The notes beneath the pieces were generated by a model. That model worked only from the letters and a program-made list of their open reading frames with translations. It made no database searches and was not told the origin of the DNA. The position numbers and the translations under genes were made by a program. Of a stretch of DNA of 64,000 nucleotides, positions 39,199 to 64,000 are shown one piece after another; the stretch's first letter is position 1; each line of letters begins with the position of its first letter. The stretch lies in the NCBI RefSeq assembly GCF_055900595.2, contig NZ_CM148325.1. One strand, 5' to 3'.

Positions 39199-39205
39199 TC
39201 TTGCC

Positions 39206-39731: not shown

Positions 39732-39994
39732 TAGCTGCCACAGCTCCCGGCGGCAAGTGACTGTTCGCTACAGCGTTTGCCGTTGGGTAATGCACACATC
39801 CCAATCGCCGTACCATCCAGTTGACGGGCAACAGAAAGCGAACCGCCGATCATTGCACAATTTGCTTCTCCACTACTGGACATCGACGCTTTTAAACCTG
39901 GCGCTACGTGCGCCGCAGTCGCCTGCTGAACAGGTTCACTACTACACGCCGACAATAATAAAGCGGCACACCCTACCCAAAACGCTGCTCGCAT
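39728..39994 (-). CDS. ydbJ: Small lipoprotein YdbJ (DUF333)
   Basis: 88 aa, signal/lipobox LLSACSS. Confidence 0.85.
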   Translation of the reverse strand: MRAAFWVGCAALLLSACSSEPVQQATAAHVAPGLKASMSSSGEANCAMIGGSLSVARQLDGTAIGMCALPNGKRCSEQSLAAGSCGSY

Positions 39995-40267
39995 CTTTTC
40001 TTCCTCTGATCTTCAAGCCAAACGACACCGCCATAAATAATAGGCAGCACAGAGGGCGGCGTCGAGAGCTGTCCTGCGCGTTGCCCCGCATTTTTACTTT
40101 TTTATGGCTATTTTTTTGCCCTCTGTTTGATCAAAACATTCATTACGCTGATGTGGGGGACACAAAAGCGAAAATGCAGAAGAAAGCCATTTGCTAAAAT
40201 TGAAAGATAACTACTGGGCGCGCAGCAATTTCGTGCGCCCCTCATTTGCGCAATGTAAGGGTGTCAT

Positions 40268-43792: not shown

Positions 43793-43821
43793 ATGCTCTG
43801 GATAAGGATAATCCAATTCTA

Positions 43822-43930
43822 AAAAAAAGCCCGGACGACTGTTCGGGCTTGTCTTTTTATATGTTGGAAAATCAGTGGCAATGCAATGGCCCAACAGAAA
43901 ATAAAATCTGTGACAATAAAGGCATATAAC
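43822..43930 (-). ncRNA. micC: MicC small RNA (represses ompC)
   Basis: Minus-strand GTTATATGCCTTTATTGTCACAGATTTTATTTTCTGTTGGGCC...AGCCCGAACAGTCGTCCGGGCTTTTTTTT; divergent from ompN. Confidence 0.85.
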
Positions 43931-44157
43931 CCGCGCAGAATAACGTATAGCAAATTAAAAGTATAATTTTTATTTTGTATGTATTATCTTCGATACATTC
44001 ACCAGGCTTATTATCATTTCAGAGGAATTATTTGATTAAGGTTTTACTTAAGGCGTAACAAATGATATTTATCGGCTAACTGAACTTCTCCTTTAGGATG
44101 TTTTCACTCCCCGAAATGGGGATAAAAGGCAAATAAAATAACTAAAGGATTTATTCA

Positions 44158-45291
44158 ATGAAAAGCAAAGTACTGGCACTTTTAATTCCTGCCCTGCTCG
44201 CCGCAGGTGCTGCACATGCAGCCGAAGTTTATAATAAAGACGGCAACAAATTTGATCTGTATGGCAAAGTTGATGGCCTGCATTATTTTTCTGATAATTC
44301 AGCGAAAGATGGCGACCAGAGCTATGCGCGTCTGGGTTTTAAAGGCGAAACCCAAATTAACGATCAACTTACTGGCTACGGTCAATGGGAATACAATATT
44401 CAGGCAAACAACACTGAATCTTCAAAAAACCAGTCATGGACCCGTCTGGCATTTGCCGGACTGAAATTTGCAGATTACGGTTCTTTCGATTACGGACGTA
44501 ATTATGGCGTAATGTACGACATCGAAGGCTGGACCGATATGCTGCCTGAATTTGGCGGTGACTCTTATACCAATGCAGACAACTTTATGACTGGTCGTGC
44601 CAATGGCGTCGCGACTTATCGTAACACTGATTTCTTCGGTCTGGTAAATGGTCTGAACTTCGCGGTGCAGTATCAAGGTAACAACGAAGGAGCCAGTAAT
44701 GGTCAGGAAGGCACCAACAACGGACGTGATGTTCGCCATGAAAACGGTGACGGCTGGGGTCTTTCCACAACATATGATTTAGGCATGGGCTTTAGCGCTG
44801 GTGCGGCATACACCTCTTCTGACCGCACCAATGACCAGGTTAACCATACTGCGGCTGGTGGTGATAAAGCAGACGCGTGGACTGCTGGGCTAAAATACGA
44901 TGCTAACAATATTTACCTGGCAACCATGTATTCAGAAACGCGTAATATGACCCCGTTTGGCGACAGCGATTATGCTGTTGCAAACAAAACCCAGAACTTT
45001 GAAGTCACTGCACAGTACCAGTTTGATTTTGGTCTGCGTCCGGCAGTCTCTTTCCTGATGTCTAAAGGCCGTGACCTGCACGCTGCCGGTGGTGCAGACA
45101 ACCCGGCAGGTGTTGATGATAAAGATCTGGTAAAATACGCCGATGTTGGCGCGACTTACTATTTCAACAAAAATATGTCCACCTACGTTGACTATAAAAT
45201 CAACCTGTTGGATGAAGATGACAGCTTCTACGCTGCCAACGGCATCTCTACCGATGATATTGTCGCTTTAGGTCTGGTTTATCAGTTCTAA
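44158..45291 (+). CDS. ompN: Outer membrane porin OmpN
   Basis: 377 aa general porin (OmpC/F family) with signal peptide and C-terminal ...LVYQF. Confidence 0.93.
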
Positions 45292-45299
45292 ATCCTCCT

Positions 45300-45324
45300 G
45301 CCCGCTGTTATGGCGGGCTTTTTC
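45300..45324 (+). terminator. Intrinsic terminator of ompN
   Basis: GCCCGC-tgttatg-GCGGGC followed by TTTTT. Confidence 0.75.
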
Positions 45325-45350
45325 TGCTTATTCTTCCTCCTTTGATCTAA

Positions 45351-45866
<516 letters not shown>

Positions 45867-45873
45867 CACTAAC

Positions 45874-45898
45874 GCCCGCACATTGCTGCGGGCTTTTT
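45874..45898 (+). terminator. Intrinsic terminator of uspF
   Basis: GCCCGCA-cattgc-TGCGGGC followed by TTTTT. Confidence 0.75.
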
Positions 45899-46041
45899 GA
45901 TTCATTTCGCAAATGTGCTGACATTTTCCCCTCTAATCCGTACCATACACGCCACAGTTTTTATATCAGATTTCTTATGCTGGGCGTTCCGGCATGACGC
46001 ATACTCTTCTGATGCCATATAACGAATTGAGTCGCTTTTAA

Positions 46042-46977
46042 ATGTCGCAAAATCAAGAAATTAGTAAGAAAGAACAATACAACCTGAACAAATTACAAAA
46101 ACGTCTGCGTCGTAACGTGGGCGAAGCCATTGCTGACTTCAATATGATTGAAGAAGGCGATCGCATCATGGTTTGCCTCTCCGGGGGTAAAGACAGCTAT
46201 ACCATGCTGGAGATTCTGCGCAATTTGCAGCAAAGCGCTCCAATCAATTTTTCGCTGGTGGCTGTTAACCTCGATCAAAAGCAACCGGGCTTCCCGGAAC
46301 ACGTTCTGCCCGAGTATCTTGAAAAGCTGGGCATTGAGTACAAGATTGTGGAAGAGAACACTTACGGTATCGTGAAAGAGAAGATTCCGGAGGGCAAAAC
46401 CACTTGCTCACTGTGTTCTCGTCTTCGTCGCGGAATTCTTTACCGTACCGCAACGGAACTGGGAGCGACGAAGATCGCGCTGGGTCACCATCGTGACGAT
46501 ATCCTGCAAACGCTGTTCTTAAATATGTTCTATGGCGGCAAGATGAAAGGTATGCCACCGAAACTGATGAGCGATGATGGCAAACATATTGTGATTCGTC
46601 CGCTGGCCTACTGTCGCGAGAAAGATATTCAACGCTTTGCCGATGCAAAAGCGTTCCCGATTATTCCGTGCAACCTGTGCGGTTCACAGCCTAACCTGCA
46701 ACGTCAGGTGATTGCTGACATGTTGCGTGACTGGGATAAACGTTATCCGGGGCGTATCGAGACGATGTTCAGCGCGATGCAGAATGTGGTGCCGTCGCAT
46801 CTGTGCGATACCAACCTGTTCGATTTCAAAGGCATTACCCACGGTTCTGAAGTGGTTAACGGGGGTGATCTGGCGTTTGATCGCGAAGAGATCCCTCTAC
46901 AACCGGCGGGTTGGCAGCCTGAAGAAGATGAAAATCAGTTGGATGAGTTACGACTGAATGTGGTTGAAGTGAAATAA
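46042..46977 (+). CDS. ttcA: tRNA 2-thiocytidine(32) synthetase TtcA
   Basis: 311 aa, PP-loop SGGKDS and CxxC Fe-S motifs. Confidence 0.93.
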
Positions 46978-47024
46978 CCCGGATAGCGCCCGATGCGCAA
47001 GCTTATCGGGCTACTCTTATGGAG

Positions 47025-47057
47025 GCCGGATAAGACGCGGCCAGCGTCGCATCCGGC
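47025..47057. repeat. REP element downstream of ttcA/dbpA
   Basis: GCCGGATAAGACGCGGCCAGCGTCGCATCCGGC palindromic unit. Confidence 0.65.
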
Positions 47058-47105
47058 AATCCCGAAGAAGATGTTTACTCTTGCACCCTGCGATTCAACA
47101 TTTCA

Positions 47106-48479
47106 TTATTTTAATAACCGCACCCGGCACGTTTTTCCTTTAATCTTCCCGCCCTGTAACTGTTTCCATGCTTTATGAGCAACAGCCTGACGCACCGCAA
47201 CATAGACATGCGCCGGATGCACGGCGATTTTGCCAATATCTGCGCCATCAAGCCCGATATCTCCTGTCAGCGCACCTAATACATCACCCGGGCGCATTTT
47301 GGCTTTTTTCCCGCCATCGATACACAACGTTGCCATTTCTGCTTCCAGCGGCACAATGGAACTATTAACTGGCGGCGTTTGCCAGTTAAGTTTTATCTGC
47401 AACATGTCAGAAATGATATTGGCCCGCTGTGCTTCTTCCGGGGCACAGAAACTGATCGCCAGACCGCTATTTCCTGCACGCGCTGTACGACCGATGCGAT
47501 GTACATGAACTTCAGGATCCCACGCCAGTTCAAAGTTCACTACCAGCTCAAGCGATTTAATATCAAGACCACGCGCAGCAACATCCGTCGCGACCAGCAC
47601 ACGAGCGCTACCGTTAGCAAAACGTACCAGGGTCTGATCGCGGTCACGTTGCTCCAGATCGCCATGTAACGACAATGCACTTTGCCCTATGTCATTCAGC
47701 GCGTCGCAGACAGCCTGACAATCTTTTTTGGTATTGCAAAACACCACGCAAGAGGATGGCTGATGCAAACTTAATAACCGTTGCAACAGCGGAATTTTGC
47801 CTTTGCTGGATGTCTCATAAAATTGTTGTTCAATGGGAGGCAGAGCATCTGTTGAGTCAATTTCAATCGCCAATGGATCGCGTTGAACTCGTCCGCTGAT
47901 TGCGGTGATGGCTTCCGGCCAGGTTGCCGAAAACAGAAGCGTCTGTCGAGATGCTGGCGCAAAACGGATAACATCATCAATGGCATCGCTAAATCCCATA
48001 TCCAGCATGCGATCGGCTTCATCCATCACCAGCATATTCAACGCATCCAGTGATACCGTGCCTTTTTGCAGATGGTCCAGCAAACGACCTGGGGTTGCCA
48101 CGATAATATGCGGCGCATGTTGCAACGAATCACGCTGCATACCGAACGGTTGACCACCGCACAAAGTCAAAATTTTGGTATTTGGCAGAAAACGCGCCAG
48201 CCGACGCAATTCACCTGCCACCTGATCCGCCAGTTCACGCGTAGGACACAGCACTAAAGCCTGGGTCTGAAATAGCGACGCATCAATTTTCTGTAGCAGC
48301 CCGAGGCCAAAAGCCGCCGTTTTGCCGCTGCCGGTTTTCGCCTGCACGCGAACATCTTTTCCGGCAAGGATCGCCGGAAGCGCGGCGGCCTGCACCGGCG
48401 TCATAGTTAAATAACCCAACTCATTAAGGTTCGTGAGTTGGGCGGGAGGCAAAACATTCAGGGTAGAAAAAGCGGTCAC
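47106..48479 (-). CDS. dbpA: ATP-dependent RNA helicase DbpA (DEAD-box, 23S rRNA-specific)
   Basis: 457 aa; Q-motif, Walker A AKTGSGKT, DEAD box, C-terminal RNA-binding domain. Confidence 0.95.
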   Translation of the reverse strand: MTAFSTLNVLPPAQLTNLNELGYLTMTPVQAAALPAILAGKDVRVQAKTGSGKTAAFGLGLLQKIDASLFQTQALVLCPTRELADQVAGELRRLARFLPNTKILTLCGGQPFGMQRDSLQHAPHIIVATPGRLLDHLQKGTVSLDALNMLVMDEADRMLDMGFSDAIDDVIRFAPASRQTLLFSATWPEAITAISGRVQRDPLAIEIDSTDALPPIEQQFYETSSKGKIPLLQRLLSLHQPSSCVVFCNTKKDCQAVCDALNDIGQSALSLHGDLEQRDRDQTLVRFANGSARVLVATDVAARGLDIKSLELVVNFELAWDPEVHVHRIGRTARAGNSGLAISFCAPEEAQRANIISDMLQIKLNWQTPPVNSSIVPLEAEMATLCIDGGKKAKMRPGDVLGALTGDIGLDGADIGKIAVHPAHVYVAVRQAVAHKAWKQLQGGKIKGKTCRVRLLK

Positions 48480-48509
48480 AATCTGTTCTCGTGGTCATCG
48501 ACGCAAAAA

Positions 48510-48683
48510 TTAGCAAGCGCGTATCCTCGCAGATCTACGCTCACGATGCGACAATTTAATCGGTTCTTCATCGGGTGGTGGGTCAGGCATGGGTTGCGGG
48601 CGAGGGATTGGATCGGGCACTGGAACAGGATCGCCAGGAATCGGTTCAGGGACAGGAATTTGCAAATAAATGAGTGTCGTCAT
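48510..48683 (-). CDS. Candidate proline-rich small protein (57 codons) downstream of FnrS
   Basis: MTTLIYLQIPVPEPIPGDPVPVPDPIPRPQPMPDPPPDEEPIKLSHRERRSARIRAC; strong SD GGAGGG 5 nt upstream of ATG; below ORF-track cutoff; identity unverified. Confidence 0.4.
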   Translation of the reverse strand: MTTLIYLQIPVPEPIPGDPVPVPDPIPRPQPMPDPPPDEEPIKLSHRERRSARIRAC

Positions 48684-48736
48684 ATTTCCCTCCGGTCATT
48701 GGGTGGACTCTTAAAGGGTAGACGCTGATATATAAC

Positions 48737-48862
48737 AGGCAAAAAAAAGCCGACTCATCAAAGTCGGCGTCGTACGAATCAATTGTGCTATGCAGTAATT
48801 CAAAAAAGGAAGTAAGACAATATGGAGCGCAACGCCCATCGCTTGACGTTGCATTCACCTGC
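48737..48862 (-). ncRNA. fnrS: FnrS small RNA (FNR-activated anaerobic regulator)
   Basis: Minus-strand GCAGGTGAATGCAACGTCAAGCGATGGGCGTTGCGCTCCATATTGTCTTACTTCC...GCCGACTTTGATGAGTCGGCTTTTTTTT with intrinsic terminator. Confidence 0.88.
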
Positions 48863-48897
48863 GAGAGAGATATTGCCCTGAATGGGTAGAGAGTTTA

Positions 48898-48911
48898 TTG
48901 ACTTCGCTCAA
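48898..48911. promoter_or_regulatory. FNR binding site (class II, centred near -41.5) of the fnrS promoter
   Basis: TTGACTTCGCTCAA, close to TTGAT-N4-ATCAA, about 42 bp upstream of the FnrS 5' end. Confidence 0.75.
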
Positions 48912-48957
48912 ACTTTGCGGCGTTTTTGTATACAGATAGTAGGGAAAATTGCTGTTG

Positions 48958-49962
<1,005 letters not shown>

Positions 49963-50195
49963 TTATTTTGTAGTCTAGCCTTCTGGCCCTGTTACGCAAC
50001 ATCTCATCACCCCATTACCCTGAAATGATTAATAAAATTCTGTCTAAATTGAATACAAAAAGCAAAATGCTTTTCCATATACAAACCGTGTGAAGTGTTA
50101 AATAGCGTCTATCATTATCAGAATTATCTGATCATATGACGTGGCTTTTTTGCGATCGGATAGCAACAAAAATTGATAAAAATAACGGGATCTCA

Positions 50196-51428
50196 ATGAT
50201 TACGCACAACTTCAATACCCTGGACTTACTCACCAGTCCTGTCTGGATCGTTTCGCCCTTTGAGGAACAGTTAATTTATGCCAACAGCGCGGCGCGACTG
50301 TTGATGCAAGACCTCACGTTTAGTCAGCTACGAACCGGTCCCTATTCCGTCTCCTCACAAAAAGAACTACCGAAATACCTCTCCGATCTGCAAAACCAAC
50401 ACGATATTATCGAAATCCTCACCGTTCAACGTAAAGAAGAGGAAACAGCATTAAGCTGTCGGCTTGTTTTGCGAGAGCTGACAGAAGCAGAACCGGTGAT
50501 TATTTTCGAAGGCATCGAAGCGCCGGCAACGCTGGGTTTAAAAGCCAGTCGCTCGGCAAATTATCAGCGCAAAAAACAAGGTTTTTATGCGCGCTTTTTT
50601 CTGACTAACTCTGCACCAATGTTGTTGATTGACCCCTCACGAGATGGCCAAATCGTCGATGCTAACCTCGCCGCGCTCAATTTCTATGGTTATAACCATG
50701 AAACGATGTGCCAGAAACATACCTGGGAAATTAATATGCTCGGGCGTCGCGTCATGCCTATCATGCATGAAATCTCGCATTTACCCGGTGGTCATAAGCC
50801 TTTGAATTTTGTTCATAAACTGGCGGATGGTTCGACTCGTCATGTGCAGACCTATGCTGGGCCGATTGAAATTTATGGCGACAAGCTCATGTTATGTATT
50901 GTGCATGATATTACTGAGCAAAAACGGCTGGAGGAGCAGTTGGAACATGCTGCCCACCATGACGCGATGACCGGATTACTGAATCGGCGCCAGTTTTATC
51001 ACATTACCGAGCCAGGCCAAATGCAGCACCTCGCCATCGCTCAGGATTACAGCTTATTGCTCATCGACACCGATCGTTTTAAACACATTAACGATCTCTA
51101 TGGGCATTCTAAAGGTGATGAGGTGTTATGCGCCCTCGCCCGCACTCTCGAAAGTTGCGCTCGCAAAGGCGATTTGGTGTTTCGTTGGGGAGGCGAAGAG
51201 TTTGTCTTATTGCTACCAAGAACCCCACTGGATACCGCGCTTTCGCTGGCTGAAACTATCCGCGTAAGCGTGACAAAAGTGAGTATTTCGGGCTTACCAC
51301 GCTTTACCGTCAGCATTGGTGTGGCGCATCACGAAGGAAATGAAAGCATCGATGAACTGTTTAAACGCGTTGATGATGCTTTGTATCGGGCGAAAAATGA
51401 TGGACGCAACCGCGTGCTGGCGGCATAA
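50196..51428 (+). CDS. dgcM: Diguanylate cyclase DgcM (PAS-PAS-GGDEF)
   Basis: ORF 50136..51428; start taken at MITHNFNTLDLL (50196); GGEEF active-site motif present (RWGGEEFVLLL). Confidence 0.9.
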   Translation: MITHNFNTLDLLTSPVWIVSPFEEQLIYANSAARLLMQDLTFSQLRTGPYSVSSQKELPKYLSDLQNQHDIIEILTVQRKEEETALSCRLVLRELTEAEPVIIFEGIEAPATLGLKASRSANYQRKKQGFYARFFLTNSAPMLLIDPSRDGQIVDANLAALNFYGYNHETMCQKHTWEINMLGRRVMPIMHEISHLPGGHKPLNFVHKLADGSTRHVQTYAGPIEIYGDKLMLCIVHDITEQKRLEEQLEHAAHHDAMTGLLNRRQFYHITEPGQMQHLAIAQDYSLLLIDTDRFKHINDLYGHSKGDEVLCALARTLESCARKGDLVFRWGGEEFVLLLPRTPLDTALSLAETIRVSVTKVSISGLPRFTVSIGVAHHEGNESIDELFKRVDDALYRAKNDGRNRVLAA

Positions 51429-51448
51429 GCCGCGGATGCGTCTCGAGA

Positions 51449-52012
51449 TCAACGACTGCGCTTAGCGTGGCGCTCCCAGTTTTCTTGCTTTGCCTGCGCC
51501 GTTTTACGTAGTGCGACGTAACACGCCCCGCTGCCGCCATGATGCGGTAGCGCGGTACAATATGCCTGGACATCATCAAATTCGGTCAACCAGCACGCCA
51601 CATAGCTGCGGACAATATTGGCATGCGATTTATCTTCCCGCCCTTTACCATGAATAATCAGCACATTACGCAAACCATCCGCCAGGGCTTGTTGAATGAA
51701 ACTGAACACCATTTTGCGGCACTCTTCCACCGGCTGGCGCAAAAGATTCAGGCTCGCCTGTTGCGGATATTTACCACTGCGCAGCTTATCCAGCACCCCA
51801 TGTTGCAACCCTTCCCGCCGAAACTCCAGCAGCTGGCTTAGCGGGATGATGTCGAGAAATCCGGTGGTGAGGAAATTATCAAGTTGCAGCGTGTCGATAC
51901 GCTGCGGCGCACGTTGGTTACGCGTTGGATGCCAGTGGACATCTATAGCACGTTTCAGCGGCTGGACATCTTCCATGGCGTCAAGAAACAGCGATTTGTC
52001 GTCAAGGTTCAT
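51449..52012 (-). CDS. smrA: Smr-domain endonuclease SmrA (YdaL)
   Basis: 187 aa with C-terminal Smr domain. Confidence 0.88.
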   Translation of the reverse strand: MNLDDKSLFLDAMEDVQPLKRAIDVHWHPTRNQRAPQRIDTLQLDNFLTTGFLDIIPLSQLLEFRREGLQHGVLDKLRSGKYPQQASLNLLRQPVEECRKMVFSFIQQALADGLRNVLIIHGKGREDKSHANIVRSYVACWLTEFDDVQAYCTALPHHGGSGACYVALRKTAQAKQENWERHAKRSR

Positions 52013-52239
52013 GTTACATCCTCCCGCAATTAAGAGCGCGATATGATAACCAGACCGGGTCGGTCCAACAACGTATTACCCAAAATTCCAGTAATAAGTT
52101 CCAAATATTGCCGATATTTTAAGCAAAATGCTTATGCATGATTATTCATTCACGATATTAATAATGTAACTTATATTTTCGTGAAATCTGTCACTGAAGA
52201 AAATTGGCAACTAAAGGTTAAAACCGTTATAACACAGTC

Positions 52240-52334
52240 ACCGGCGCAGAGGAGACCATGCCGGATTTAAGACGCGGATGCACTGCTGTGTGTACTGTAG
52301 AGTCTGGCGGATGTCGACAGACTCTATTTTTTTA
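52240..52334 (+). ncRNA. mcaS: McaS (IsrA) small RNA
   Basis: ACCGGCGCAGAGGAGACCATGCCGGATTTAAGACGCGGATGCACTGCTGTGTGTACTGTAGAGTCTGGCGGATGTCGACAGACTCTATTTTTTTAT with terminator hairpin and U-tract, between smrA and abgR. Confidence 0.85.
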
Positions 52335-52341
52335 TGCAGTT

Positions 52342-53250
52342 TTAACTTTGCAGATAGCCGCATTCTCGCCGAAATTGCGTGATTAATGACGCGGTCAGTG
52401 GTGTCTGGCGACTATCACGCCGCTGAATCAAATAATAGGCCGCTTTCGGTAAAATTTCGCTAACCGGCAACATCACCAGCCCCTGTCCGTGCAAGGGATC
52501 GCAGCCCATTTCTTCAGGTAGTATGCTGAGAAAATCGCTTTTTGCCACCAGACTGATACAGGCTGAAAACGTCTCGCAGACTACGCCGACCTGTGGCGTT
52601 TGCGCCTGATCGTCAAGCAATTCACTCAACTGTTTGTAGTAGCTGCCGTGTGGCGTCGGCATTGTCCAGCTGTAGTCCAGTAACTGTTTGATCGAACGGG
52701 CACCAATGGCGGGATGTCCCGGGCGGCAAAAGATCGCGAATTGCTTTTCCAGTAATTTCTCAAAAGTAAATTCGTGGTCGTAGGGTCCCTGATAATAGGT
52801 ATTGATGGTGAAATCCAGTTCTCCCTGTCGCAATTCATTAATCATCGACACCAGTTGCCCTTCCATAATGCGTACTTTTACCTGCGGATGCTGCTGATGA
52901 AAACGAGATATGACAGCTGGCATCAGACTGCGGGAAATACTGGCCCCCATGCCGATATTAATTTGCCCTGCCAGTTGCCCTTGTCGTTGGCGAATATCCT
53001 CTTGCGCTGCGCGCAGCTCTTCAAGAATAAGACTGGCGTGCTGATAAAAACTTTCACCGGCATCAGTTAACGTCACGCCTTTACTACGGCGAAAAAAGAG
53101 TTGCGCCGCTAACCCTTCTTCCAGCTCCTGAATAGATTTACTCAGTGCCGGTTGCGACATATTCAACATGCGGCTCGCTCCGCGAATGCTGCCCTGACGA
53201 GCCACTTCAACAAAAGCCCGAATTTGATGAATTTTTACCTGAAAAGCCAT
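52342..53250 (-). CDS. abgR: LysR-family regulator AbgR
   Basis: 302 aa, N-terminal HTH, divergent from abgABT. Confidence 0.92.
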   Translation of the reverse strand: MAFQVKIHQIRAFVEVARQGSIRGASRMLNMSQPALSKSIQELEEGLAAQLFFRRSKGVTLTDAGESFYQHASLILEELRAAQEDIRQRQGQLAGQINIGMGASISRSLMPAVISRFHQQHPQVKVRIMEGQLVSMINELRQGELDFTINTYYQGPYDHEFTFEKLLEKQFAIFCRPGHPAIGARSIKQLLDYSWTMPTPHGSYYKQLSELLDDQAQTPQVGVVCETFSACISLVAKSDFLSILPEEMGCDPLHGQGLVMLPVSEILPKAAYYLIQRRDSRQTPLTASLITQFRRECGYLQS

Positions 53251-53425
53251 GACGCCACCGATAACCGTTATTTATCAGACCAAAGAAACTGGCATCTACT
53301 TTAATGCAGATGATTGTGTCAGGGTAATTTATGAACGGTTAAAACTGTGAAAAATCAGTTAGTGATAAGTAAAAACTATCGCTACGTGAACCGGGTCACA
53401 CTTTTTACTGATGACGGGAAAGGTT

Positions 53426-54736
53426 ATGGAGTCTTTGAATCAATTTATTAATTCGCTTGCCCCAAAATTATCGCACTGGCGACGTGATTTTCACCACTAT
53501 GCAGAGTCTGGCTGGGTGGAATTCCGCACTGCTACCCTTGTTGCGGAAGAATTCCACCAGCTCGGTTATTCACTGGCGCTGGGCCGCGAAGTCGTTAATG
53601 AAAGTAGCCGGATGGGATTACCTGATGAATTCACTCTACAACGCGAATTCGAGCGCGCTCGTCAACAGGGGGCGCTAGAACAATGGATTGCGGCTTTTGA
53701 AGGCGGTTTCACTGGCATCGTCGCTACCCTGGATACCGGTCGCCCCGGTCCAGTGATGGCTTTCCGTGTCGATATGGACGCGCTGGATCTCAGTGAAGAA
53801 CGGGATGTCAGCCATCGCCCCTATCGCGACGGTTTTGCGTCATGTAACGCCGGAATGATGCATGCCTGTGGTCATGATGGACATACCGCCATTGGGCTTG
53901 GGCTGGCGCATACCTTTAAACAGTTCGAGTCCGGACTACATGGCATCATCAAACTGATTTTTCAACCTGCAGAAGAAGGTACGCGTGGCGCGCGGGCGAT
54001 GGTCGATGCAGGAGTAGTGGATGATGTTGATTATTTTACTGCTGTGCACATTGGCACTGGTGTACCTGCGGGCACAGTAGTGTGCGGCAGTGATAATTTT
54101 ATGGCAACCACCAAATTTGACGCGCACTTCACCGGGACCGCCGCTCACGCAGGCGCAAAACCAGAAGACGGTCACAATGCCTTACTGGCGGCAGCACAAG
54201 CAACTCTTGCGCTGCATGGAATCGCCCCGCACAGCGAAGGGGCTTCCAGAGTAAACGTGGGCGTTATGCAGGCAGGAAGCGGTCGTAATGTGGTTCCTGC
54301 CTCGGCGTTGCTGAAAGTGGAAACACGCGGGGCCAGCGATGTCATTAATCAATATGTTTTTGACCGTGCACAACAAGCGATTCAGGGCGCAGCAGCCATG
54401 TATGGTGTCGGCGTTGAAACTCGGCTGATGGGTGCAGCTACCGCCAGTTCTCCTTCGCCGCAATGGGTCGCATGGTTACAAAGCCAGGCGGCTCAGGTCG
54501 CGGGGGTCAATCAGGCCATTGAACGTGTTGAGGCGCCTGCGGGTTCCGAAGATGCCACATTAATGATGGCCCGCGTGCAGCGACATCAAGGGCAAGCCTC
54601 CTATATGGTGTTTGGCACACAGCTGGCGGCAGGTCATCACAACGAAAAATTCGATTTTGACGAGCAGGTTCTCGCTATTGCCGTCGAAACGCTGGCGCGC
54701 ACCGCGCTTAATTTTCCCTGGACGCGAGGTATCTGA
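53426..54736 (+). CDS. abgA: p-Aminobenzoyl-glutamate hydrolase subunit A (M20 peptidase)
   Basis: ORF 53411..54736; start taken at MESLNQFINSL (53426). Confidence 0.92.
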   Translation: MESLNQFINSLAPKLSHWRRDFHHYAESGWVEFRTATLVAEEFHQLGYSLALGREVVNESSRMGLPDEFTLQREFERARQQGALEQWIAAFEGGFTGIVATLDTGRPGPVMAFRVDMDALDLSEERDVSHRPYRDGFASCNAGMMHACGHDGHTAIGLGLAHTFKQFESGLHGIIKLIFQPAEEGTRGARAMVDAGVVDDVDYFTAVHIGTGVPAGTVVCGSDNFMATTKFDAHFTGTAAHAGAKPEDGHNALLAAAQATLALHGIAPHSEGASRVNVGVMQAGSGRNVVPASALLKVETRGASDVINQYVFDRAQQAIQGAAAMYGVGVETRLMGAATASSPSPQWVAWLQSQAAQVAGVNQAIERVEAPAGSEDATLMMARVQRHQGQASYMVFGTQLAAGHHNEKFDFDEQVLAIAVETLARTALNFPWTRGI

Positions 54737-56181
54737 TGCAGGAAATCTATCGTTTTATCGACGATGCGATTGAAGCCGATCGCCAACGTTATACCGATAT
54801 TGCTGATCAAATCTGGGATCATCCAGAAACACGTTTTGAAGAGTTCTGGTCAGCGGAACATCTGGCTTCGGCGCTGGAATCTGCAGGCTTCACCGTGACT
54901 CGCAACGTAGGCAATATCCCAAATGCCTTTATTGCTTCGTTTGGTCAAGACAAACCGGTTATCGCCTTGCTGGGGGAATATGACGCCCTGGCAGGTTTAA
55001 GTCAGCAAGCAGGTTGCGCGCAGCCTACATCCACGACGCCCGGTGAAAATGGTCACGGTTGCGGACACAATTTGCTGGGAACCGCCGCTTTTGCCGCAGC
55101 AATAGCCGTCAAGAAATGGCTGGAACAATATGGGCAAGGCGGCACGGTGCGCTTTTATGGTTGTCCTGGCGAAGAAGGCGGCTCGGGAAAAACGTTCATG
55201 GTCCGCGAGGGGTTATTTGATGATGTGGATGCGGCACTCACCTGGCACCCGGAAGCCTTTGCCGGTATGTTCAATACCCGCACGCTGGCAAATATTCAAG
55301 CATCATGGCGCTTTAAAGGGATCGCAGCACATGCTGCAAATTCCCCTCATTTGGGACGCAGCGCCCTTGATGCCGTAACGTTGATGACCACTGGCACCAA
55401 CTTCCTCAACGAACATATTATTGAAAAAGCGCGCGTACACTATGCCATCACAGAGAGCGGCGGGATCTCGCCCAACGTGGTCCAGGCGCAGGCAGAAGTG
55501 CTTTATCTTATCCGCGCCCCCGAAATGACCGACGTGCAGCATATTTATGATCGGGTAGCCAAAATCGCCGAAGGTGCGGCATTGATGACCGAAACCACGG
55601 TTGAATGCCGCTTCGACAAAGCCTGTTCCAGTTATCTCCCGAATCGCACCTTAGAAAAGGTCATGTACCAGGCTCTGTCCCATTTTGGAACCCCTGAATG
55701 GAAATCCGAAGAACTGGCTTTTGCGAAACAAATTCAGGCTACGCTCACCCCCAACGATCGGCAAAACAGTCTGAATAATATTGCCGCAACCGGTGGAGAA
55801 AACGGCAAGGCTTTTGCAATACGTCATCGTGAAACGGTACTGGCGAATGAAGTCGCTCCATATGCCGCCACCGATAACGTGCTTGCGGCATCGACTGATG
55901 TCGGCGACGTCAGTTGGAAACTGCCTGTTGCCCAGTGTTTCAGCCCCTGTTTCGCCGTCGGTACACCGCTACATACGTGGCAACTGGTTAGCCAGGGGCG
56001 AACGTCTATTGCTCATAAAGGAATGCTGCTGGCGGCGAAAACTATGGCAGCAACCACACTCAATCTCTTCAATGTTTCAGGGCTATTGCAAGAATGCCAA
56101 CAAGAGCATCAGCAAGTTACGGACACGCAACCGTATCACTGCCCTATTCCGAAAAACGTGACACCGTCACCTTTAAAATAA
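54736..56181 (+). CDS. abgB: p-Aminobenzoyl-glutamate hydrolase subunit B (M20 peptidase)
   Basis: 481 aa; start overlaps abgA stop (translational coupling). Confidence 0.92.
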   Translation: MQEIYRFIDDAIEADRQRYTDIADQIWDHPETRFEEFWSAEHLASALESAGFTVTRNVGNIPNAFIASFGQDKPVIALLGEYDALAGLSQQAGCAQPTSTTPGENGHGCGHNLLGTAAFAAAIAVKKWLEQYGQGGTVRFYGCPGEEGGSGKTFMVREGLFDDVDAALTWHPEAFAGMFNTRTLANIQASWRFKGIAAHAANSPHLGRSALDAVTLMTTGTNFLNEHIIEKARVHYAITESGGISPNVVQAQAEVLYLIRAPEMTDVQHIYDRVAKIAEGAALMTETTVECRFDKACSSYLPNRTLEKVMYQALSHFGTPEWKSEELAFAKQIQATLTPNDRQNSLNNIAATGGENGKAFAIRHRETVLANEVAPYAATDNVLAASTDVGDVSWKLPVAQCFSPCFAVGTPLHTWQLVSQGRTSIAHKGMLLAAKTMAATTLNLFNVSGLLQECQQEHQQVTDTQPYHCPIPKNVTPSPLK

Positions 56182-56217
56182 CAACAACAACGCAAACACA
56201 ACAATCGAGGAATGCCC

Positions 56218-57744
56218 ATGAGTATGTCATCCATACCGTCATCCTCCCAATCCGGGAAGCTCTATGGCTGGGTCGAAAGAATTGGTAACAAGGTTCCCCA
56301 TCCTTTTTTGCTCTTTATCTATTTGATTATCGTACTCATGGTGACGACGGCAATTTTGTCGGCCTTTGGCGTCAGTGCGAAAAACCCGACCGATGGTACG
56401 CCAGTGGTCGTGAAAAACCTGCTCAGTGTGGAAGGATTACACTGGTTTTTACCCAATGTGATTAAAAACTTTAGCGGTTTTGCCCCACTAGGCGCGATCC
56501 TGGCGCTGGTTTTAGGTGCTGGTCTGGCGGAGCGCGTCGGCTTACTGCCAGCGTTGATGGTTAAAATGGCATCGCATGTGAATGCTCGCTACGCCAGTTA
56601 TATGGTGCTGTTTATTGCTTTTTTCAGCCACATTTCTTCCGATGCGGCGTTAGTGATCATGCCACCGATGGGTGCGCTAATTTTTCTGGCGGTGGGCAGG
56701 CATCCAGTTGCAGGTTTACTGGCCGCCATTGCAGGCGTAGGTTGCGGCTTTACGGCTAATTTACTGATTGTCACAACCGACGTGTTGCTGTCGGGGATCA
56801 GCACGGAAGCTGCGGCTGCATTCAATCCGCAAATGCACGTCAGTGTAATTGATAACTGGTATTTTATGGCCAGCTCCGTAGTCGTACTGACGGTTGTTGG
56901 CGGCCTGATAACCGACAAAATCATTGAGCCACGGTTAGGTCAATGGCAGGGAAACAGCGATGAGAAACTGCAAACCTTGACCGAAAGTCAGCGTTTTGGT
57001 TTACGCATAGCAGGTGTCGTATCGCTACTTTTTATTGCTGCGATTGCGCTGATGGTAATCCCGGTAAACGGTATATTGCGCGATCCGATTAATCACACCG
57101 TGATGCCATCCCCCTTTATTAAAGGTATCGTGCCACTGATCATTCTTTTTTTCTTTGTGGTCTCGCTGGCTTATGGCATCGCTACCCGCACAATTCGACG
57201 TCAGGCGGATTTACCGCATTTAATGATTGAACCGATGAAAGAGATGGCGGGATTTATCGTGATGGTTTTTCCCCTGGCCCAGTTTGTCGCCATGTTTAAC
57301 TGGAGCAACATGGGGAAATTCATCGCTGTGGGGCTGACCGATATACTCGAAAGTTCAGGGCTTAGCGGCATCCCGGCGTTTGTCGGTCTGGCGTTGCTTT
57401 CCTCTTTCTTATGCATGTTTATCGCTAGCGGTTCCGCAATCTGGTCGATTCTGGCCCCCATTTTCGTACCAATGTTTATGCTACTTGGCTTTCACCCGGC
57501 ATTTGCGCAAATCCTCTTTCGTATTGCCGACTCATCCGTATTGCCTTTAGCGCCGGTATCTCCTTTTGTTCCACTGTTTCTTGGATTCCTGCAACGCTAC
57601 AAACCAGACGCGAAACTGGGTACTTACTATTCGTTAGTTTTGCCCTATCCACTTATCTTTTTGGTGGTATGGCTGCTGATGTTGCTGGCGTGGTATCTTG
57701 TTGGTCTGCCGATAGGTCCGGGGATTTACCCTCGTTTGTCTTAA
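56218..57744 (+). CDS. abgT: p-Aminobenzoyl-glutamate transporter AbgT
   Basis: ORF 56212..57744; polytopic AbgT-family membrane protein. Confidence 0.92.
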
Positions 57745-57754
57745 GAGAGAACGG

Positions 57755-58270
57755 ATGCTGAGATTACTTGAAGAAAAAATTGCCACGCCACTGGGTCCAC
57801 TGTGGGTGATTTGCGATGAGCAATTTCGCCTGCGGGCGGTTGAATGGGAAGAGTACAGCGAACGCATGGTGCAACTGCTGGACATCCATTACCGCAAAGA
57901 AGGCTATGAACGCATTTCTGCCACCAACCCAGGTGGTTTAAGCGACAAGCTTCGTGAATATTTTGCCGGTAATCTTAGCATTATTGATACGCTTCCCACT
58001 GCCACGGGGGGGACGCCATTTCAGCGCGAAGTCTGGAAAACATTACGCACAATCCCCTGCGGGCAGGTAATGCATTACGGCCAACTGGCTGAACAATTGG
58101 GCCGCCCCGGCGCGGCGCGTGCCGTAGGTGCGGCAAATGGATCGAATCCCATCAGCATTGTTGTGCCTTGTCATCGGGTCATTGGCAGAAACGGTACCAT
58201 GACCGGATATGCAGGCGGAGTTCAGCGAAAAGAGTGGTTATTGCGCCACGAAGGTTATCTTTTGCTGTAA
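57755..58270 (+). CDS. ogt: O6-alkylguanine-DNA alkyltransferase Ogt
   Basis: 171 aa with active-site PCHRV motif ([10 protein letters not shown]). Confidence 0.93.
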
Positions 58271-58316
58271 ACATTAAACAATTTGTGCCAGCTTGTTCAC
58301 ACTTTTATGTAAAGTT

Positions 58317-58340
58317 ACCCTTAACAACTTAAGGGTTTTC
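58317..58340 (+). terminator. Intrinsic terminator of abgT-ogt
   Basis: CCCTTAA-caac-TTAAGGG followed by TTTT. Confidence 0.7.
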
Positions 58341-58431
58341 AAATAGATAGACATATATTTACATCTAATATCGGAATTCTCTGCTGTTAAGGTTTGCTTA
58401 GACTTACTTGCTCCCTAAAAAGATGTTAAAA

Positions 58432-58445
58432 TTGACAAATATCAA
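58432..58445. promoter_or_regulatory. FNR autoregulatory operator at the fnr promoter
   Basis: Perfect FNR palindrome TTGACAAATATCAA 20 bp upstream of the fnr ATG. Confidence 0.8.
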
Positions 58446-58464
58446 TTACGGCTTGAGCAGACCT

Positions 58465-59217
58465 ATGATCCCGGAAAAGCGAATTATACGGCGCATTCAG
58501 TCTGGCGGTTGTGCTATCCATTGCCAGGATTGCAGCATCAGCCAGCTTTGCATCCCGTTCACACTCAACGAACATGAGCTTGATCAGCTTGATAATATCA
58601 TTGAGCGAAAGAAGCCTATTCAGAAAGGCCAGACGCTGTTTAAGGCTGGTGATGAACTTAAATCGCTTTATGCCATCCGCTCCGGTACGATTAAAAGTTA
58701 TACCATCACTGAGCAAGGCGACGAGCAAATCACTGGTTTCCATTTAGCAGGCGACCTGGTGGGATTTGATGCCATCGGCAGTGGTCATCACCCAAGCTTC
58801 GCGCAGGCGCTGGAAACCTCGATGGTATGTGAAATCCCGTTCGAAACGCTGGACGATTTGTCCGGTAAAATGCCGAATCTGCGTCAGCAGATGATGCGTC
58901 TGATGAGCGGTGAAATCAAAGGCGATCAGGACATGATCCTGCTGTTGTCGAAGAAAAATGCCGAGGAGCGTCTGGCTGCATTCATCTACAACCTGTCCCG
59001 TCGTTTTGCCCAACGCGGCTTCTCCCCTCGTGAATTCCGCCTGACGATGACTCGTGGCGATATCGGTAACTATCTGGGCCTGACGGTAGAAACCATCAGC
59101 CGTCTGCTGGGTCGCTTCCAGAAAAGCGGTATGCTGGCAGTCAAAGGTAAATACATCACCATCGAAAATAACGATGCGCTGGCCCAGCTTGCTGGTCATA
59201 CGCGTAACGTTGCCTGA
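58465..59217 (+). CDS. fnr: Fumarate and nitrate reduction regulator FNR (CRP/FNR family, Fe-S oxygen sensor)
   Basis: ORF 58408..59217; canonical start [29 protein letters not shown] with N-terminal Cys cluster; C-terminal HTH. Confidence 0.96.
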
Positions 59218-59368
59218 TTTTTCCGCATAACTCACTATCCTTCTGTCATATCATTAAATTTTTCTGATTTATTGATCTGACAGAAGGTTCATCACTGTTT
59301 CATTCACCAGATATGGGTTAATCTTTTAATTACAAACTGCGTTGACAGTTGTTGTAAGGAGACCCTGT

Positions 59369-60319
59369 ATGGCTATGTATCAGAACATGCTCGTTGTTAT
59401 CGATCCTAACCAGGACGACCAACCAGCATTGCGGCGAGCTGTTTATTTACATCAACGGATTGGTGGCAAAATTAAAGCCTTTTTGCCGATCTATGACTTC
59501 TCATACGAAATGACCACCCTGCTCTCCCCGGACGAACGTACCGCTATGCGTCAGGGCGTCATCAGCCAGCGAACAGCCTGGATCCACGAGCAGGCAAAAT
59601 ATTATCTCAATGCTGGCGTTCCCATTGAAATTAAAGTGGTCTGGCATAACCGTCCATTCGAAGCCATCATTCAGGAAGTGATCAGCGGCGGACACGATTT
59701 GGTGCTAAAAATGGCGCACCAACATGACCGTCTGGAAGCGGTGATTTTTACGCCAACGGACTGGCATCTGTTACGCAAATGCCCAAGCCCGGTGTGGATG
59801 GTGAAAGACCAGCCGTGGCCGGAAGGGGGTAAGGCGCTGGTGGCGGTGAATCTCGCCAGTGAAGAGCCGTACCATAATGCGCTCAATGAAAAACTGGTTA
59901 AAGAGACGATCGAACTGGCGGAACAAGTTAATCATACCGAAGTTCATCTGGTTGGCGCTTATCCGGTAACGCCAATTAATATCGCGATTGAACTGCCGGA
60001 ATTTGATCCGAGCGTTTATAACGATGCCATTCGTGGGCAACATTTGCTGGCTATGAAAGCCCTGCGGCAGAAATTCGGCATTAATGAAAACATGACACAC
60101 GTTGAAAAAGGTCTACCAGAAGAGGTGATTCCTGATTTGGCGGAGCACTTACAGGCGGGGATTGTGGTTCTGGGAACGGTCGGACGCACCGGTATTTCAG
60201 CAGCATTCCTCGGCAACACGGCGGAACAAGTGATTGATCATCTTCGCTGCGACCTGCTGGTCATTAAACCTGACCAGTATCAGACACCCGTTGAACTGGA
60301 TGACGAAGAAGACGATTAA
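59369..60319 (+). CDS. uspE: Universal stress protein E (tandem Usp domains)
   Basis: ORF 59342..60319; start taken at [17 protein letters not shown] (59369). Confidence 0.92.
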
Positions 60320-60338
60320 CGACTCTTCAATAACTGAC

Positions 60339-60366
60339 AAGGCCCGAGTTATCGGGCCTATTTTTT
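60339..60366 (+). terminator. Intrinsic terminator of uspE (between convergent uspE and ynaJ)
   Basis: GGCCCGA-gtta-TCGGGCC followed by TATTTTTT. Confidence 0.7.
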
Positions 60367-60368
60367 AC

Positions 60369-60626
60369 TTACTGCTCTTCGCCGCCAAGGAAATAAATGC
60401 CCAACGGGATTGCCAGCAACACAGTAAAGACCAGGCTATAAACAAAAATCATTGATGACTGAATCACATACATTGATGTCGTCCACTCAGACAGCGGAAT
60501 ATTGTACTGTTCTATCACGCCGCCGATGGTCGCGCGAGTCACAACCGACGCCGCAATAATGAAAACCGCCAACAAACCAAAGAGAAATTTCTTCCCTTTC
60601 GCTGACTTCAGTTTCGCCATAATCAT
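60369..60626 (-). CDS. ynaJ: Small inner-membrane protein YnaJ (DUF2534)
   Basis: 85 aa, two predicted TM helices. Confidence 0.88.
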   Translation of the reverse strand: MIMAKLKSAKGKKFLFGLLAVFIIAASVVTRATIGGVIEQYNIPLSEWTTSMYVIQSSMIFVYSLVFTVLLAIPLGIYFLGGEEQ

Positions 60627-60869
60627 GATGTAATCCTTGTGCAGACAAATTTTTTGTTACCTCTATGCAACAATACCATGACATTTCACTCTTGTCTGCT
60701 CTGAAAACCTCACCTCTTAGCCGGATTTACAATCAATGCATTGATTTGTTAGCTAATGTTGCTACTTACTTCCCTGACTATTGATGATCTGAATGAATTG
60801 TCGCGGTAAAATATCCCCGCCAGGGGTTTCCGGCATGACGACAATTATCTGGAGGAGCCTGATAAAACA

Positions 60870-61901
60870 ATGATCGCTGAACTGTTTACAAATAATGCGC
60901 TTAATCTGGTCATTATTTTCGGTAGCTGCGCAGCATTGATTCTGATGAGCTTTTGGTTTCGCCGTGGAAATCGTAAAAGAAAAGGGTTTTTATTCCATGC
61001 GGTGCAATTTTTCATCTACACCATAATTATCAGTGCTGTTGGTAGCATCATTAATTATGTTATAGAAAACTATAAACTCAAATTTATCACCCCAGGCGTT
61101 ATCGATTTTATCTGTACGTCCCTGATTGCGGTTATTCTGACGATTAAACTATTTCTGCTGATAAATCAGTTTGAAAAACAGCAGATTAAAAAAGGTCGCG
61201 ATATCACCAGTGCGCGGATTATGTCGCGTATCATCAAAATCACCATTATTGTGGTACTTGTTTTGCTTTATGGCGAACATTTCGGCATGAGCCTTTCTGG
61301 CTTGTTGACCTTTGGTGGTATTGGTGGTCTGGCTGTCGGTATGGCCGGTAAAGATATTTTGAGTAATTTCTTTTCCGGGATTATGCTCTATTTCGACCGT
61401 CCTTTTAGTATTGGCGACTGGATCCGTTCACCGGACAGAAATATCGAAGGTACAGTAGCGGAAATTGGCTGGCGAATTACCAAAATTACGACCTTTGATA
61501 ATCGTCCATTGTACGTACCGAACTCGCTGTTTTCGTCAATCAGCGTAGAAAACCCTGGACGAATGACCAACCGGCGCATTACCACGACCATTGGTTTACG
61601 TTATGAGGATGCGGCAAAAGTGGGCGTTATTGTCGAAGCCGTACGTGAGATGCTGAAAAATCACCCGGCCATCGACCAGCGACAAACCTTACTGGTTTAT
61701 TTCAACCAGTTTGCTGACTCCTCATTGAATATTATGGTTTATTGCTTTACCAAAACCACGGTATGGGCTGAATGGCTTGCCGCCCAGCAGGATGTTTATT
61801 TGAAGATTATCGATATTGTACAGTCACACGGCGCGGATTTCGCGTTCCCAAGCCAGACGCTGTATATGGATAACATTACACCACCAGACCAGGGTCGTTA
61901 A
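60870..61901 (+). CDS. ynaI: MscS-family mechanosensitive channel YnaI
   Basis: 343 aa; TM helices followed by MscS beta-domain. Confidence 0.92.
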
Positions 61902-61912
61902 TTCAGACATCA

Positions 61913-61940
61913 CTGGCGTTACCCACAAGGGTAACGCCAG
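61913..61940. terminator. Perfect 12-bp hairpin between convergent ynaI and mppA
   Basis: CTGGCGTTACCC-acaa-GGGTAACGCCAG; no clear U-tract on either strand, so function (terminator vs processing/stability element) uncertain. Confidence 0.4.
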
Positions 61941-61946
61941 TTCACA

Positions 61947-63560
61947 TCAATGTTTCACAATATACATAGTCCGGCTATACGCCACATCTTCCGGGTTATT
62001 AATGGGATAACCTTTCAGCCACGGTTTGATTAATCGTCCATTGGTATATTGATAAATTGGTGCAATCGGTGCTTGCTCCATGAGGATTTTTTCTGCCGCG
62101 TTGTAATCGGCATTACGCGCTTTAACGGTATTTTCCGTCGATGCCTGGGCCAAAACTTTGTCGTAGGCCGGGTTGTTAAAGCGTGAAATGTTGCCTGAAT
62201 GCGTTGACGTTAATAATGTCAGGAAGGTGGAGGGTTCATTATAATCCCCCACCCACGAGGCGCGGATAACATCAAAATTACCTGTATTACGACTATCGAT
62301 ATAGGTTTTCCATTCCTGATTTTGCAGTTTGACATCTACACCAAGGTTCTTTTTCCACATCGATGCCACAGCAATCGCAATTTTTTGATGGTTTTCTGAA
62401 GTATTATACAAAAGCGTCAGCTTCAGCGGTTTTTGCGGACCATAACCGGCTGCGCTCAACAAAGTTTTTGCCTGCGCATTCAGTTCTTCCTGACTCATTT
62501 GTTCAAACGGCGAAGGCTCCGGCGTGAATCCGGCAGTAACATCTGGCGTAAAATGCCACGCTGGTTTTTCGCCCGTCCCCAACACTTTTTCGGTCATCAG
62601 GCGGCGATCTATCGTCATACTTAATGCCAGGCGAACGCGCTGATCTGCCGTCGGCCCTTTTTGCGTGTTAAACGCATAATAATAGGTCCCGAGCTGCGGC
62701 GGCGTATAAACCTGCCCCGGAATATCCTTCAACAGCTTCTGATACATATTTTTCGGGAAGGATTCGGTGATATCAATATCCCCCGCGAGATAACGCTTAG
62801 TGGCAGCGGATTCCTGATTAATTGGCAGGAAGGTCACTTTTTGCAGTACCGTTTTGGCGTTATCCCAATAATGGGTATTCGGCACCACGACCAGTTTTTC
62901 ATTGACTACGCGCTCTTTAAGAACATAAGCGCCATTGCCGATCAGATTTCCGGGTTTCGTCCACTCTTTACTGCTTTCTACGTTGGCTTTTTGCACCGGG
63001 AAGAAGGCAAAGTTAGCGGTTAAATTCACAAACCACGGCAATGGTTTATCAAGCTGGATTTTCAAAGTATGGGCATCAACTGCGGTGACGCCAAGCTGGT
63101 CAGGCGTGGCTTTACCATCAATAATCGCCTGTGCGTTGTTGATTCCCGCCAGCGCGGCAAACCATGCAAATGGCGAAAGTGTTTTCGGGTCCACCAGACG
63201 CTGCCAGCTGTAGACAAAATCTTGCGCCGTTACCGGTGTGCCATCCGCCCATTTTGCGTTATCGCGCAGGGTAAAAGTCCAGATACGGTTGTCATTACTT
63301 TTCCACTGAGTCGCAACGCCAGGGACAATCTCCCCTTTCTCGTTCTGATTCACCAGTCCTTCAAATAGATCGCGAATGACCTGAATCTCTGGCAGGCCCA
63401 CGGCTTTAGCGGGATCCAGCGACGCAGGCTCATCTTTAATGTGGCGCACCAGCTCCTGCTTCTCTGCCAGTACTGTGCCGCTCGGAACTTCTGCAGCATA
63501 CGAAAGAGAAATGCTGCTGACCAACAGCGCACAACACGTGACTGAAACAGAGTGCTTCAT
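61947..63560 (-). CDS. mppA: Periplasmic murein tripeptide-binding protein MppA
   Basis: 537 aa family-5 solute-binding protein with signal peptide. Confidence 0.93.
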   Translation of the reverse strand: MKHSVSVTCCALLVSSISLSYAAEVPSGTVLAEKQELVRHIKDEPASLDPAKAVGLPEIQVIRDLFEGLVNQNEKGEIVPGVATQWKSNDNRIWTFTLRDNAKWADGTPVTAQDFVYSWQRLVDPKTLSPFAWFAALAGINNAQAIIDGKATPDQLGVTAVDAHTLKIQLDKPLPWFVNLTANFAFFPVQKANVESSKEWTKPGNLIGNGAYVLKERVVNEKLVVVPNTHYWDNAKTVLQKVTFLPINQESAATKRYLAGDIDITESFPKNMYQKLLKDIPGQVYTPPQLGTYYYAFNTQKGPTADQRVRLALSMTIDRRLMTEKVLGTGEKPAWHFTPDVTAGFTPEPSPFEQMSQEELNAQAKTLLSAAGYGPQKPLKLTLLYNTSENHQKIAIAVASMWKKNLGVDVKLQNQEWKTYIDSRNTGNFDVIRASWVGDYNEPSTFLTLLTSTHSGNISRFNNPAYDKVLAQASTENTVKARNADYNAAEKILMEQAPIAPIYQYTNGRLIKPWLKGYPINNPEDVAYSRTMYIVKH

Positions 63561-63742
63561 AAGTTTCCCTCAAACCTGCGTTAATAATCATGCGTAATTA
63601 TTTGTTTCGCCTTAAAGAAATGCAAACAACTTCCGGCAAAAAAGTGATACAAGATCGATAACATAGCGTTGAAGAAAAGGATTTGATAATCCGCAAAATT
63701 TGCACAACACTGCCTGTAATACTTCCTGAACCAGAGACGATT

Positions 63743-64000
63743 ATGACCGTAACCCGCCCACGCGCCGAACGCGGCGCATTTCCGCCCGGAACAGAACATT
63801 ACGGACGTTCATTATTGGGCGCGCCTTTGATCTGGTTTCCGGCCCCAGCCGCCAGTCACGAAAGTGGTTTGATTCTGGCTGGCACCCACGGTGATGAAAA
63901 CTCTTCGGTCGTGACCCTCTCCTGTGCTCTGCGGACATTGACACCTTCTTTGCGCCGCCATCATGTGGTGCTGTGTGTGAATCCTGACGGTTGCCAGTTA
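63743..64000 (+). CDS. mpaA: Murein peptide amidase A (MpaA), N-terminal part (gene runs off window end)
   Basis: MTVTRPRAERGAFPPGTEHYGRSLLGAPLIWFPAPAASHESGLILAGTHGDENSSVVTLSCALRTL... zinc carboxypeptidase-like; truncated by window. Confidence 0.8.
   Translation, partial: MTVTRPRAERGAFPPGTEHYGRSLLGAPLIWFPAPAASHESGLILAGTHGDENSSVVTLSCALRTLTPSLRRHHVVLCVNPDGCQL

Follow-up and report, generated by a model that had tools for sequence, protein, structure and literature searches.

The intergenic region between the divergent genes ynaJ and ynaI in the 64-kb stretch of DNA analysed here (the window) is best read as the ancestral, species-typical allele with an empty IS5 site, the IS5 copy at this position in K-12 being a peculiarity of K-12 and its absence here not a loss by this strain; we put the probability of this reading at about 95 %. 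The region (60627–60869, no strand) is an uninterrupted 243 bp with 40.7 % GC, bounded by the start codons of the two genes as given by the sequence and the ORF list. ynaJ (60369–60626, minus strand) is an ORF for a small membrane protein of 85 aa that matches Pfam family DUF2534 (E 4.5e-41) and bears the same name in annotated near-identical genomes, and ynaI (60870–61901, plus strand) encodes a 343 aa low-conductance mechanosensitive channel of the MscS family, with Pfam MS_channel domains and the same annotation in near-identical genomes. The local gene order is ogt–fnr–uspE–ynaJ/ynaI–mppA. No ORF of at least 40 aa lies wholly within the intergenic region, the two ORFs that overlap it also overlapping ynaJ or ynaI, and Rfam at gathering thresholds gave no match in the ynaJ–ynaI region; its matches elsewhere in the window are the known small RNAs FnrS, MicC, McaS, Sok and RydC. 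On the other side of ynaJ, a terminator-like hairpin with an 8-pair stem and a T run after it (60340–60359) lies between ynaJ and the convergent uspE, a gene pair that may be the one used in recent studies of RNA-polymerase collisions in which ynaJ is named.

The element annotated between ynaI and ynaJ in K-12 MG1655 is IS5F (insH4, b1331; 1396044–1397238, 1195 bp), and the junction sequences reveal a 4-bp target duplication with CTAA on either side. The left junction reads ...CTAA|GGAAGGTGCGAACAAG... (at greater length, ...TTAGCTAA|GGAAGGTGCGAACAAG...) and the right junction ...CTTATTCGCACCTTCC|CTAA... (at greater length, ...CTTATTCGCACCTTCC|CTAACTAATC...). The K-12 flanks align to positions 55991–60752 and 60749–63647 of the window with 97.7 % and 96.8 % identity respectively, and overlap by exactly 4 bases. 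These are the unoccupied IS5 target TTAG (CTAA on the K-12 strand; 60749–60752), a YTAR site that forms part of the palindrome TTAGCTAA at 60749–60756 and marks the point where K-12 carries IS5F. The uninterrupted sequence across the site is ...GATTTGTTAGCTAATGTTGC..., so that the two K-12 flanks are collinear with the window and meet at a single scar-free copy of the target, with no duplicated YTAR tetranucleotide around it. The first-pass annotation had stated that K-12 carries an IS5 between ynaI and ynaJ and that none is present here, and both the IS5F annotation and the single TTAG bear this out. In K-12 the intergenic sequence amounts to 121 and 126 bp on either side of IS5F, which together make up the 243 bp of the window and the 4 duplicated bases. 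The ynaI–IS5F–ynaJ loci of MG1655, W3110 and BW25113 thus share with the window their flanking genes, their orientation and, after subtraction of the element and one CTAA, the intergenic length of 243 bp, and their ynaI and ynaJ flanks are 97–98 % identical to it; they differ in having the 1195-bp IS5 and the 4-bp duplication, both of which the window lacks. K-12 BW25113 has 11 IS5 loci according to a published survey that includes ynaI/ynaJ (PMC11677980), and a K-12 mutant deleted for this IS5 copy was constructed in the same work.

Direct searches agree with this comparison. No IS5 element (~1.2 kb, with 16-bp terminal inverted repeats GGAAGGTGCGAA(C/T)AAG) is present at the ynaJ/ynaI site; the best blastn hit of IS5 in the window had an E value of 0.064, and a tblastx search with IS5F for an insH-type DDE transposase gave at best E 0.054 over 20 aa. 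The 20-nt ends of IS5 found their best counterparts in the window with 4–6 mismatches; the best matches in shuffled sequence had 5–7, and those in the corresponding K-12 sequence had 0. One match to the right end at 16 of 20 positions (11960–11979) falls inside the conserved gap gene and was judged to be due to chance. The window would accordingly preserve the native divergent region, never interrupted, with one TTAG that fits the YTAR target of IS5. A single IS5 copy, IS5F, would have transposed into this TTAG/CTAA tetranucleotide in the K-12 lineage and duplicated it, pushing the ynaJ and ynaI halves 1.2 kb apart.

The distribution of the two alleles among complete E. coli genomes bears on whether this lineage once had an IS5 here and regained the empty site by precise excision. 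We compared a 901-bp query (60300–61200) with 5426 complete genomes, scoring the region as contiguous where at least 80 % was covered in one piece; it matched 5422 of them and was contiguous in 5055 (93 %). A second query of 300 bp from K-12, comprising 150 bp of ynaI flank and 150 bp of IS5 and again counted at a coverage of at least 80 %, identified the IS5/ynaI junction in 353 complete genomes, leaving 14 of the 5422 with neither a contiguous region nor the K-12 junction. Among the matches listed for the junction are ER1709, JW-5 and IGC_EcoliInv_1.1, which we take to be K-12 laboratory derivatives, and to the extent that these three listed genomes speak for the 353, the occupied allele is limited to one lineage. 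Most E. coli sequenced so far, UTI89, IAI1 and BL21 among them, share the empty allele, and at this region only sequence divergence separates the window from them: most genomes are 97–98 % identical to it over the 901 bp, and only 8 reach at least 99 %. Those 8 closest relatives are all contiguous over the region, and base-level alignment of two of them shows the site empty in both. IS elements are known to be excised precisely at low frequency, and nothing specific at ynaJ/ynaI speaks for it; set against a single TTAG with neither duplication nor scar, an empty allele in 5055 genomes and an occupied one in 353 whose listed examples are presumed K-12 derivatives, restoration of the site by excision has only a very slight probability. 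The empty ynaJ–ynaI site is the already documented state of most E. coli genomes, and there is nothing novel in it. The junction query also gave a median of one match per genome; because it is half flank and half IS5, more than half of the complete E. coli genomes would appear to have no IS5 at all.

There is no IS anywhere in the 64 kb. The window corresponds to the K-12 MG1655 interval tehB...mpaA (about 1.3903–1.5017 Mb) in reverse orientation, with collinear blocks at 1–14547, 15702–30025, 34851–46091, 46049–60752, 60749–63647 and 63618–63999; the K-12 stretches collinear with these blocks carry no annotated IS, and length differences within them are at most about 12 bp. The two segments that are not collinear, 30026–34850 (the ydbA allele and its upstream region) and 14548–15701 (an islet), contain no transposase domain. 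A panel of 13 reference elements, including IS1, IS2, IS3, IS4, IS5, IS30, IS150, IS186, IS200, IS600, IS911 and ISX, reached best E values of 0.019 by blastn (word size 7) and 0.054 by tblastx against the window, both at chance level; as a positive control, the same panel recovered 4 IS copies from the corresponding K-12 interval (IS5 twice, IS2 once and IS30 once). The 20-nt ends of the panel elements matched the window with 4–6 mismatches, no better than shuffled sequence. As nucleotide screens of this kind detect only elements with at least roughly 80 % identity to one already known, it is collinearity and Pfam that exclude a novel IS; Pfam gave no match in the ten antisense ORFs that are unannotated and 150 aa or longer, and in the PGAP annotation of near-identical genomes transposases are named only in insertions that the window lacks.

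Searches that presuppose no particular element point the same way. When the whole window was compared by megablast with 72,556 plasmid records, only 27, 26 and 66 records matched, and since a common IS would be expected to match far more, these numbers argue against the presence of one; the matches do not represent mobile DNA either, those listed being all chromosome-length records or plasmids with chromosomal genes. A scan for inverted repeats resembling IS ends and bracketing 0.7–3 kb found no such ends among the 25 longest of 36 pairs, which are 16–33 nt long, mostly imperfect (73–100 % complementary) and, in those that were checked, located in or spanning conserved genes. One 20-nt inverted pair (14227–14246 and 14554–14573) touches the edge of the islet mentioned above. 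Collinearity, the IS panel, Pfam and the repeat scan together uphold the earlier claim that the 64 kb contains no transposase-like ORF or IS terminal repeat. A 64-kb stretch free of IS is expected from the IS densities of E. coli, and the IS-free window is an absence and not a signal, with no excess over chance involved.

An assembly in which repeats were collapsed or skipped could also give the appearance of an IS-free sequence, and short-read assemblies do break at multicopy IS elements, which biases long contigs toward stretches without them. Faced with a repeat, an assembler nevertheless terminates the contig and does not join the flanks into a clean empty site, and the window has exact empty sites at 60749–60752, 9567–9569 and ~2811–2817, where the flanks of K-12 or of relatives match base for base. 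Independent complete genomes moreover have the identical empty ynaJ–ynaI region, and we consider an artefact of this kind highly improbable.

Two further structural differences from K-12 involve mobile elements. The Rac prophage of K-12 (1411899–1434958, 23 kb, with a degenerate IS5 in lomR) lies between ttcA and uspF. In the window ttcA (46042–46977, plus strand) is 175 bp from uspF, and no Rac-type prophage, whether recognized by integrase, excisionase, phage genes or a duplicated core, was found between the two. The unoccupied attachment site is a single 43-bp copy inside the 5' end of ttcA (46049–46091), a sequence that is duplicated at the ends of Rac in K-12; the alignments 34851–46091 and 46049–60752 overlap at this core and skip K-12 positions 1411942–1434958. 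The absence of Rac that had been proposed is therefore evident from the single core and the 23 kb of K-12 sequence passed over, and it is unremarkable, since the uspF–ttcA junction is unoccupied in 2488 of 5410 complete genomes (~46 %). In K-12, ydbA is annotated as a pseudogene in three fragments, split by IS2D and IS30C, as the first-pass annotation had stated in naming IS2 and IS30. The window has in its place an intact ydbA-type autotransporter gene (28710–34202, minus strand) of 1830 aa with Pfam BigA_N and BigA_beta domains, a divergent allele with 65–80 % nucleotide identity to K-12 ydbA. On all three points, the empty IS5 site, IS2D and IS30C in ydbA, and Rac, comparison with K-12 coordinates agrees with what had been noted from the sequence.

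The non-collinear segment 30026–34850 consists of the 5' two-thirds of ydbA and a 646-bp upstream region of 35 % GC that adjoins ydbL. It replaces a 26.5-kb K-12 segment containing feaR, feaB, tynA and the paa cluster together with the 5' portion of ydbA that is split by IS elements; the ydbA/ydbL replacement junction is common to only 17 of 5285 genomes, and ydbL itself is about 78–93 % identical to most genomes. The islet at 14548–15701 (1154 bp, 34 % GC) separates ydcF from hrpA, two genes that are 141 bp apart in K-12, and is present in 185 of 5418 genomes. Its only recognisable ORF (14864–15358) encodes a 164-aa SUKH/SMI1-KNR4 protein, a second ORF of 86 aa having no Pfam match, and the NCBI annotation pipeline marks a short gene fragment without an N-terminus upstream of it. 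The SUKH family includes immunity proteins of polymorphic toxin systems. At the end of the window mppA and mpaA are adjacent and divergent (63561–63742), the K-12 blocks overlapping by 30 bp at 63618–63647; the 2.4-kb pgrR–ycjY–ymjD–ymjC segment that separates these genes in K-12 is missing, and the strain thus lacks the gene that K-12 annotates as the repressor PgrR. This adjacency occurs in only 172 of 5418 complete genomes. Finally, a chromosomal-type ogt–uspE–ynaJ segment that is ~81 % identical to window positions 57742–60684 and has aph(3')-I annotated within it occurs on 55 large conjugative plasmids of Enterobacter; this looks like a capture of the chromosomal ogt–uspE–ynaJ neighbourhood on resistance plasmids.

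The closest relatives of the window's strain provide a view of IS activity on a shorter time scale. Eight of 5426 complete genomes reach an identity of at least 99 % with the window (Z0117EC0005, E200086, E400634, E600003, E500002, AST85, 100117 and 100248), and the next-best genomes fall to about 96.3 % over the first 25 kb, the lineage being rare among complete genomes. The two compared in full, Z0117EC0005 and E200086, are ~99.96 % identical to the window over 64 kb, with about 22–24 substitutions each; 17 of these are common to both, from which the window's strain appears to sit just outside the relatives' group. The near-identical relatives share with the window the position of mppA beside mpaA, the SUKH islet, the ydbA allele and the lack of Rac, and in the four whose annotation was examined the ynaJ–ynaI region is uninterrupted. 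All 8, when aligned with a 25-kb query, span more than its length by amounts that fit IS insertions. According to their annotation, E400634 has an IS200 between rimL and ydcH, E200086 and Z0117EC0005 have this IS200 and an IS150 adjoining hokB, and 100117 has IS200, IS150 and an IS1 beside hrpA; the content of E600003, E500002 and AST85 (with the span of E400634) and of 100248 (with the span of 100117) was assigned from span lengths alone. The corresponding empty sites can be placed in the window. That of IS200 is at 2811–2817, where alignment breaks and junctions locate the ~707-bp element (tnpA of the IS200/IS605 type) of the relatives; that of IS150, with ends TGTACTG...CAGTACA in E200086, is at 9567–9569 inside the hokB/sokB leader, as given by a 3-base overlap of alignment blocks. 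The leader (Rfam Sok match at 9494–9645) is intact in the window and disrupted by IS150 in 3 of these 4 relatives. Disruption of chromosomal hok/sok loci by IS elements has been described previously. Two genes also differ in state: abgR (52342–53250) is intact in the window, while the annotation of E200086 and Z0117EC0005, which have T at position 52694 within the gene where the window has G, gives it an internal stop, and ynbB (23600–24496) is intact in the window and a pseudogene in E200086, 100117 and E400634.

Because the conspicuous differences from these relatives are IS insertions and not point mutations, the lineage evidently has active IS elements, and the emptiness of the window is a snapshot of one strain. 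The first-pass annotation had suggested a genome much less burdened by mobile elements than K-12 at this locus. At the locus this is correct, IS5F, IS2D, IS30C and Rac all being absent, but it is not supported beyond it. A strain unusually poor in mobile elements throughout, of which an IS-free and prophage-free 64 kb would be a symptom, might be expected from the contrast between no IS and no Rac here and Rac with four IS copies in the corresponding K-12 interval, from the lack of the IS200, IS150 and IS1 of the closest relatives, and from the intact abgR and ynbB where relatives have pseudogenes. The window is only about 1.3 % of the genome, however, and cannot measure a genome-wide IS load; the four relatives with examined annotation carry one to three IS each and all 8 have extra length fitting IS; and the empty ynaJ/ynaI (93 %) and ttcA (46 %) sites are common in E. 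coli, so that the unusual load is on the side of K-12. We regard a strain-wide paucity of mobile elements as unlikely.

The position of IS5F raises the question of its influence on the flanking genes. A consensus scan of 60300–61000 detected no sigma-70-like promoter at the level of 9 of 12 matches, and a relaxed scan gave only weak promoter-like hexamers, at 8 of 12, in 60627–60869. These are a candidate ynaI promoter, ATGATC-17-TAAAAT with its -10 element ending at 60812, and a candidate ynaJ promoter, CAGACA-17-TATTGT with its -10 element ending at 60670. A terminator-like hairpin on the minus strand (60835–60818) was set aside as weak, having 6 pairs, with two such sites against 0.6 ± 0.8 expected. 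As judged from sequence, the intergenic region would act as two back-to-back promoters with 5' leaders. IS5 lies 121 bp upstream of the ynaI start codon in K-12, about 65–70 bp upstream of the candidate ynaI promoter, and if both candidates are right it would fall at about -68 relative to ynaI and about -87 relative to ynaJ, upstream of the two core promoters. The K-12 annotation describes IS5 as 'transposase and trans-activator'. Since K-12 has 1.2 kb of IS5 upstream and nearly all natural E. coli do not, its ynaI and ynaJ expression is possibly unrepresentative; native ynaI expression has been studied in a K-12 background in a paper that leaves IS5 unmentioned (PMC3508906), and our literature search found no study of whether IS5F affects the expression of either gene. 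That expression and regulation measured in K-12 may fail to represent the species, with the intact region of the window as the proper reference for ynaI, is a speculative suggestion that we think will probably not hold.

In summary, K-12 is the odd one out in this part of the chromosome, with four IS copies and Rac in its 114-kb counterpart of the window. Recombination between the IS5 beside ynaI and another IS5 near ogt has deleted ynaJ–uspE–fnr in some K-12 stocks (PMC2072959); with no IS5 at the site or elsewhere in the 64 kb, the window offers no substrate for this deletion. The finding itself is of little consequence, and serves as a reminder of how atypical the K-12 locus is.
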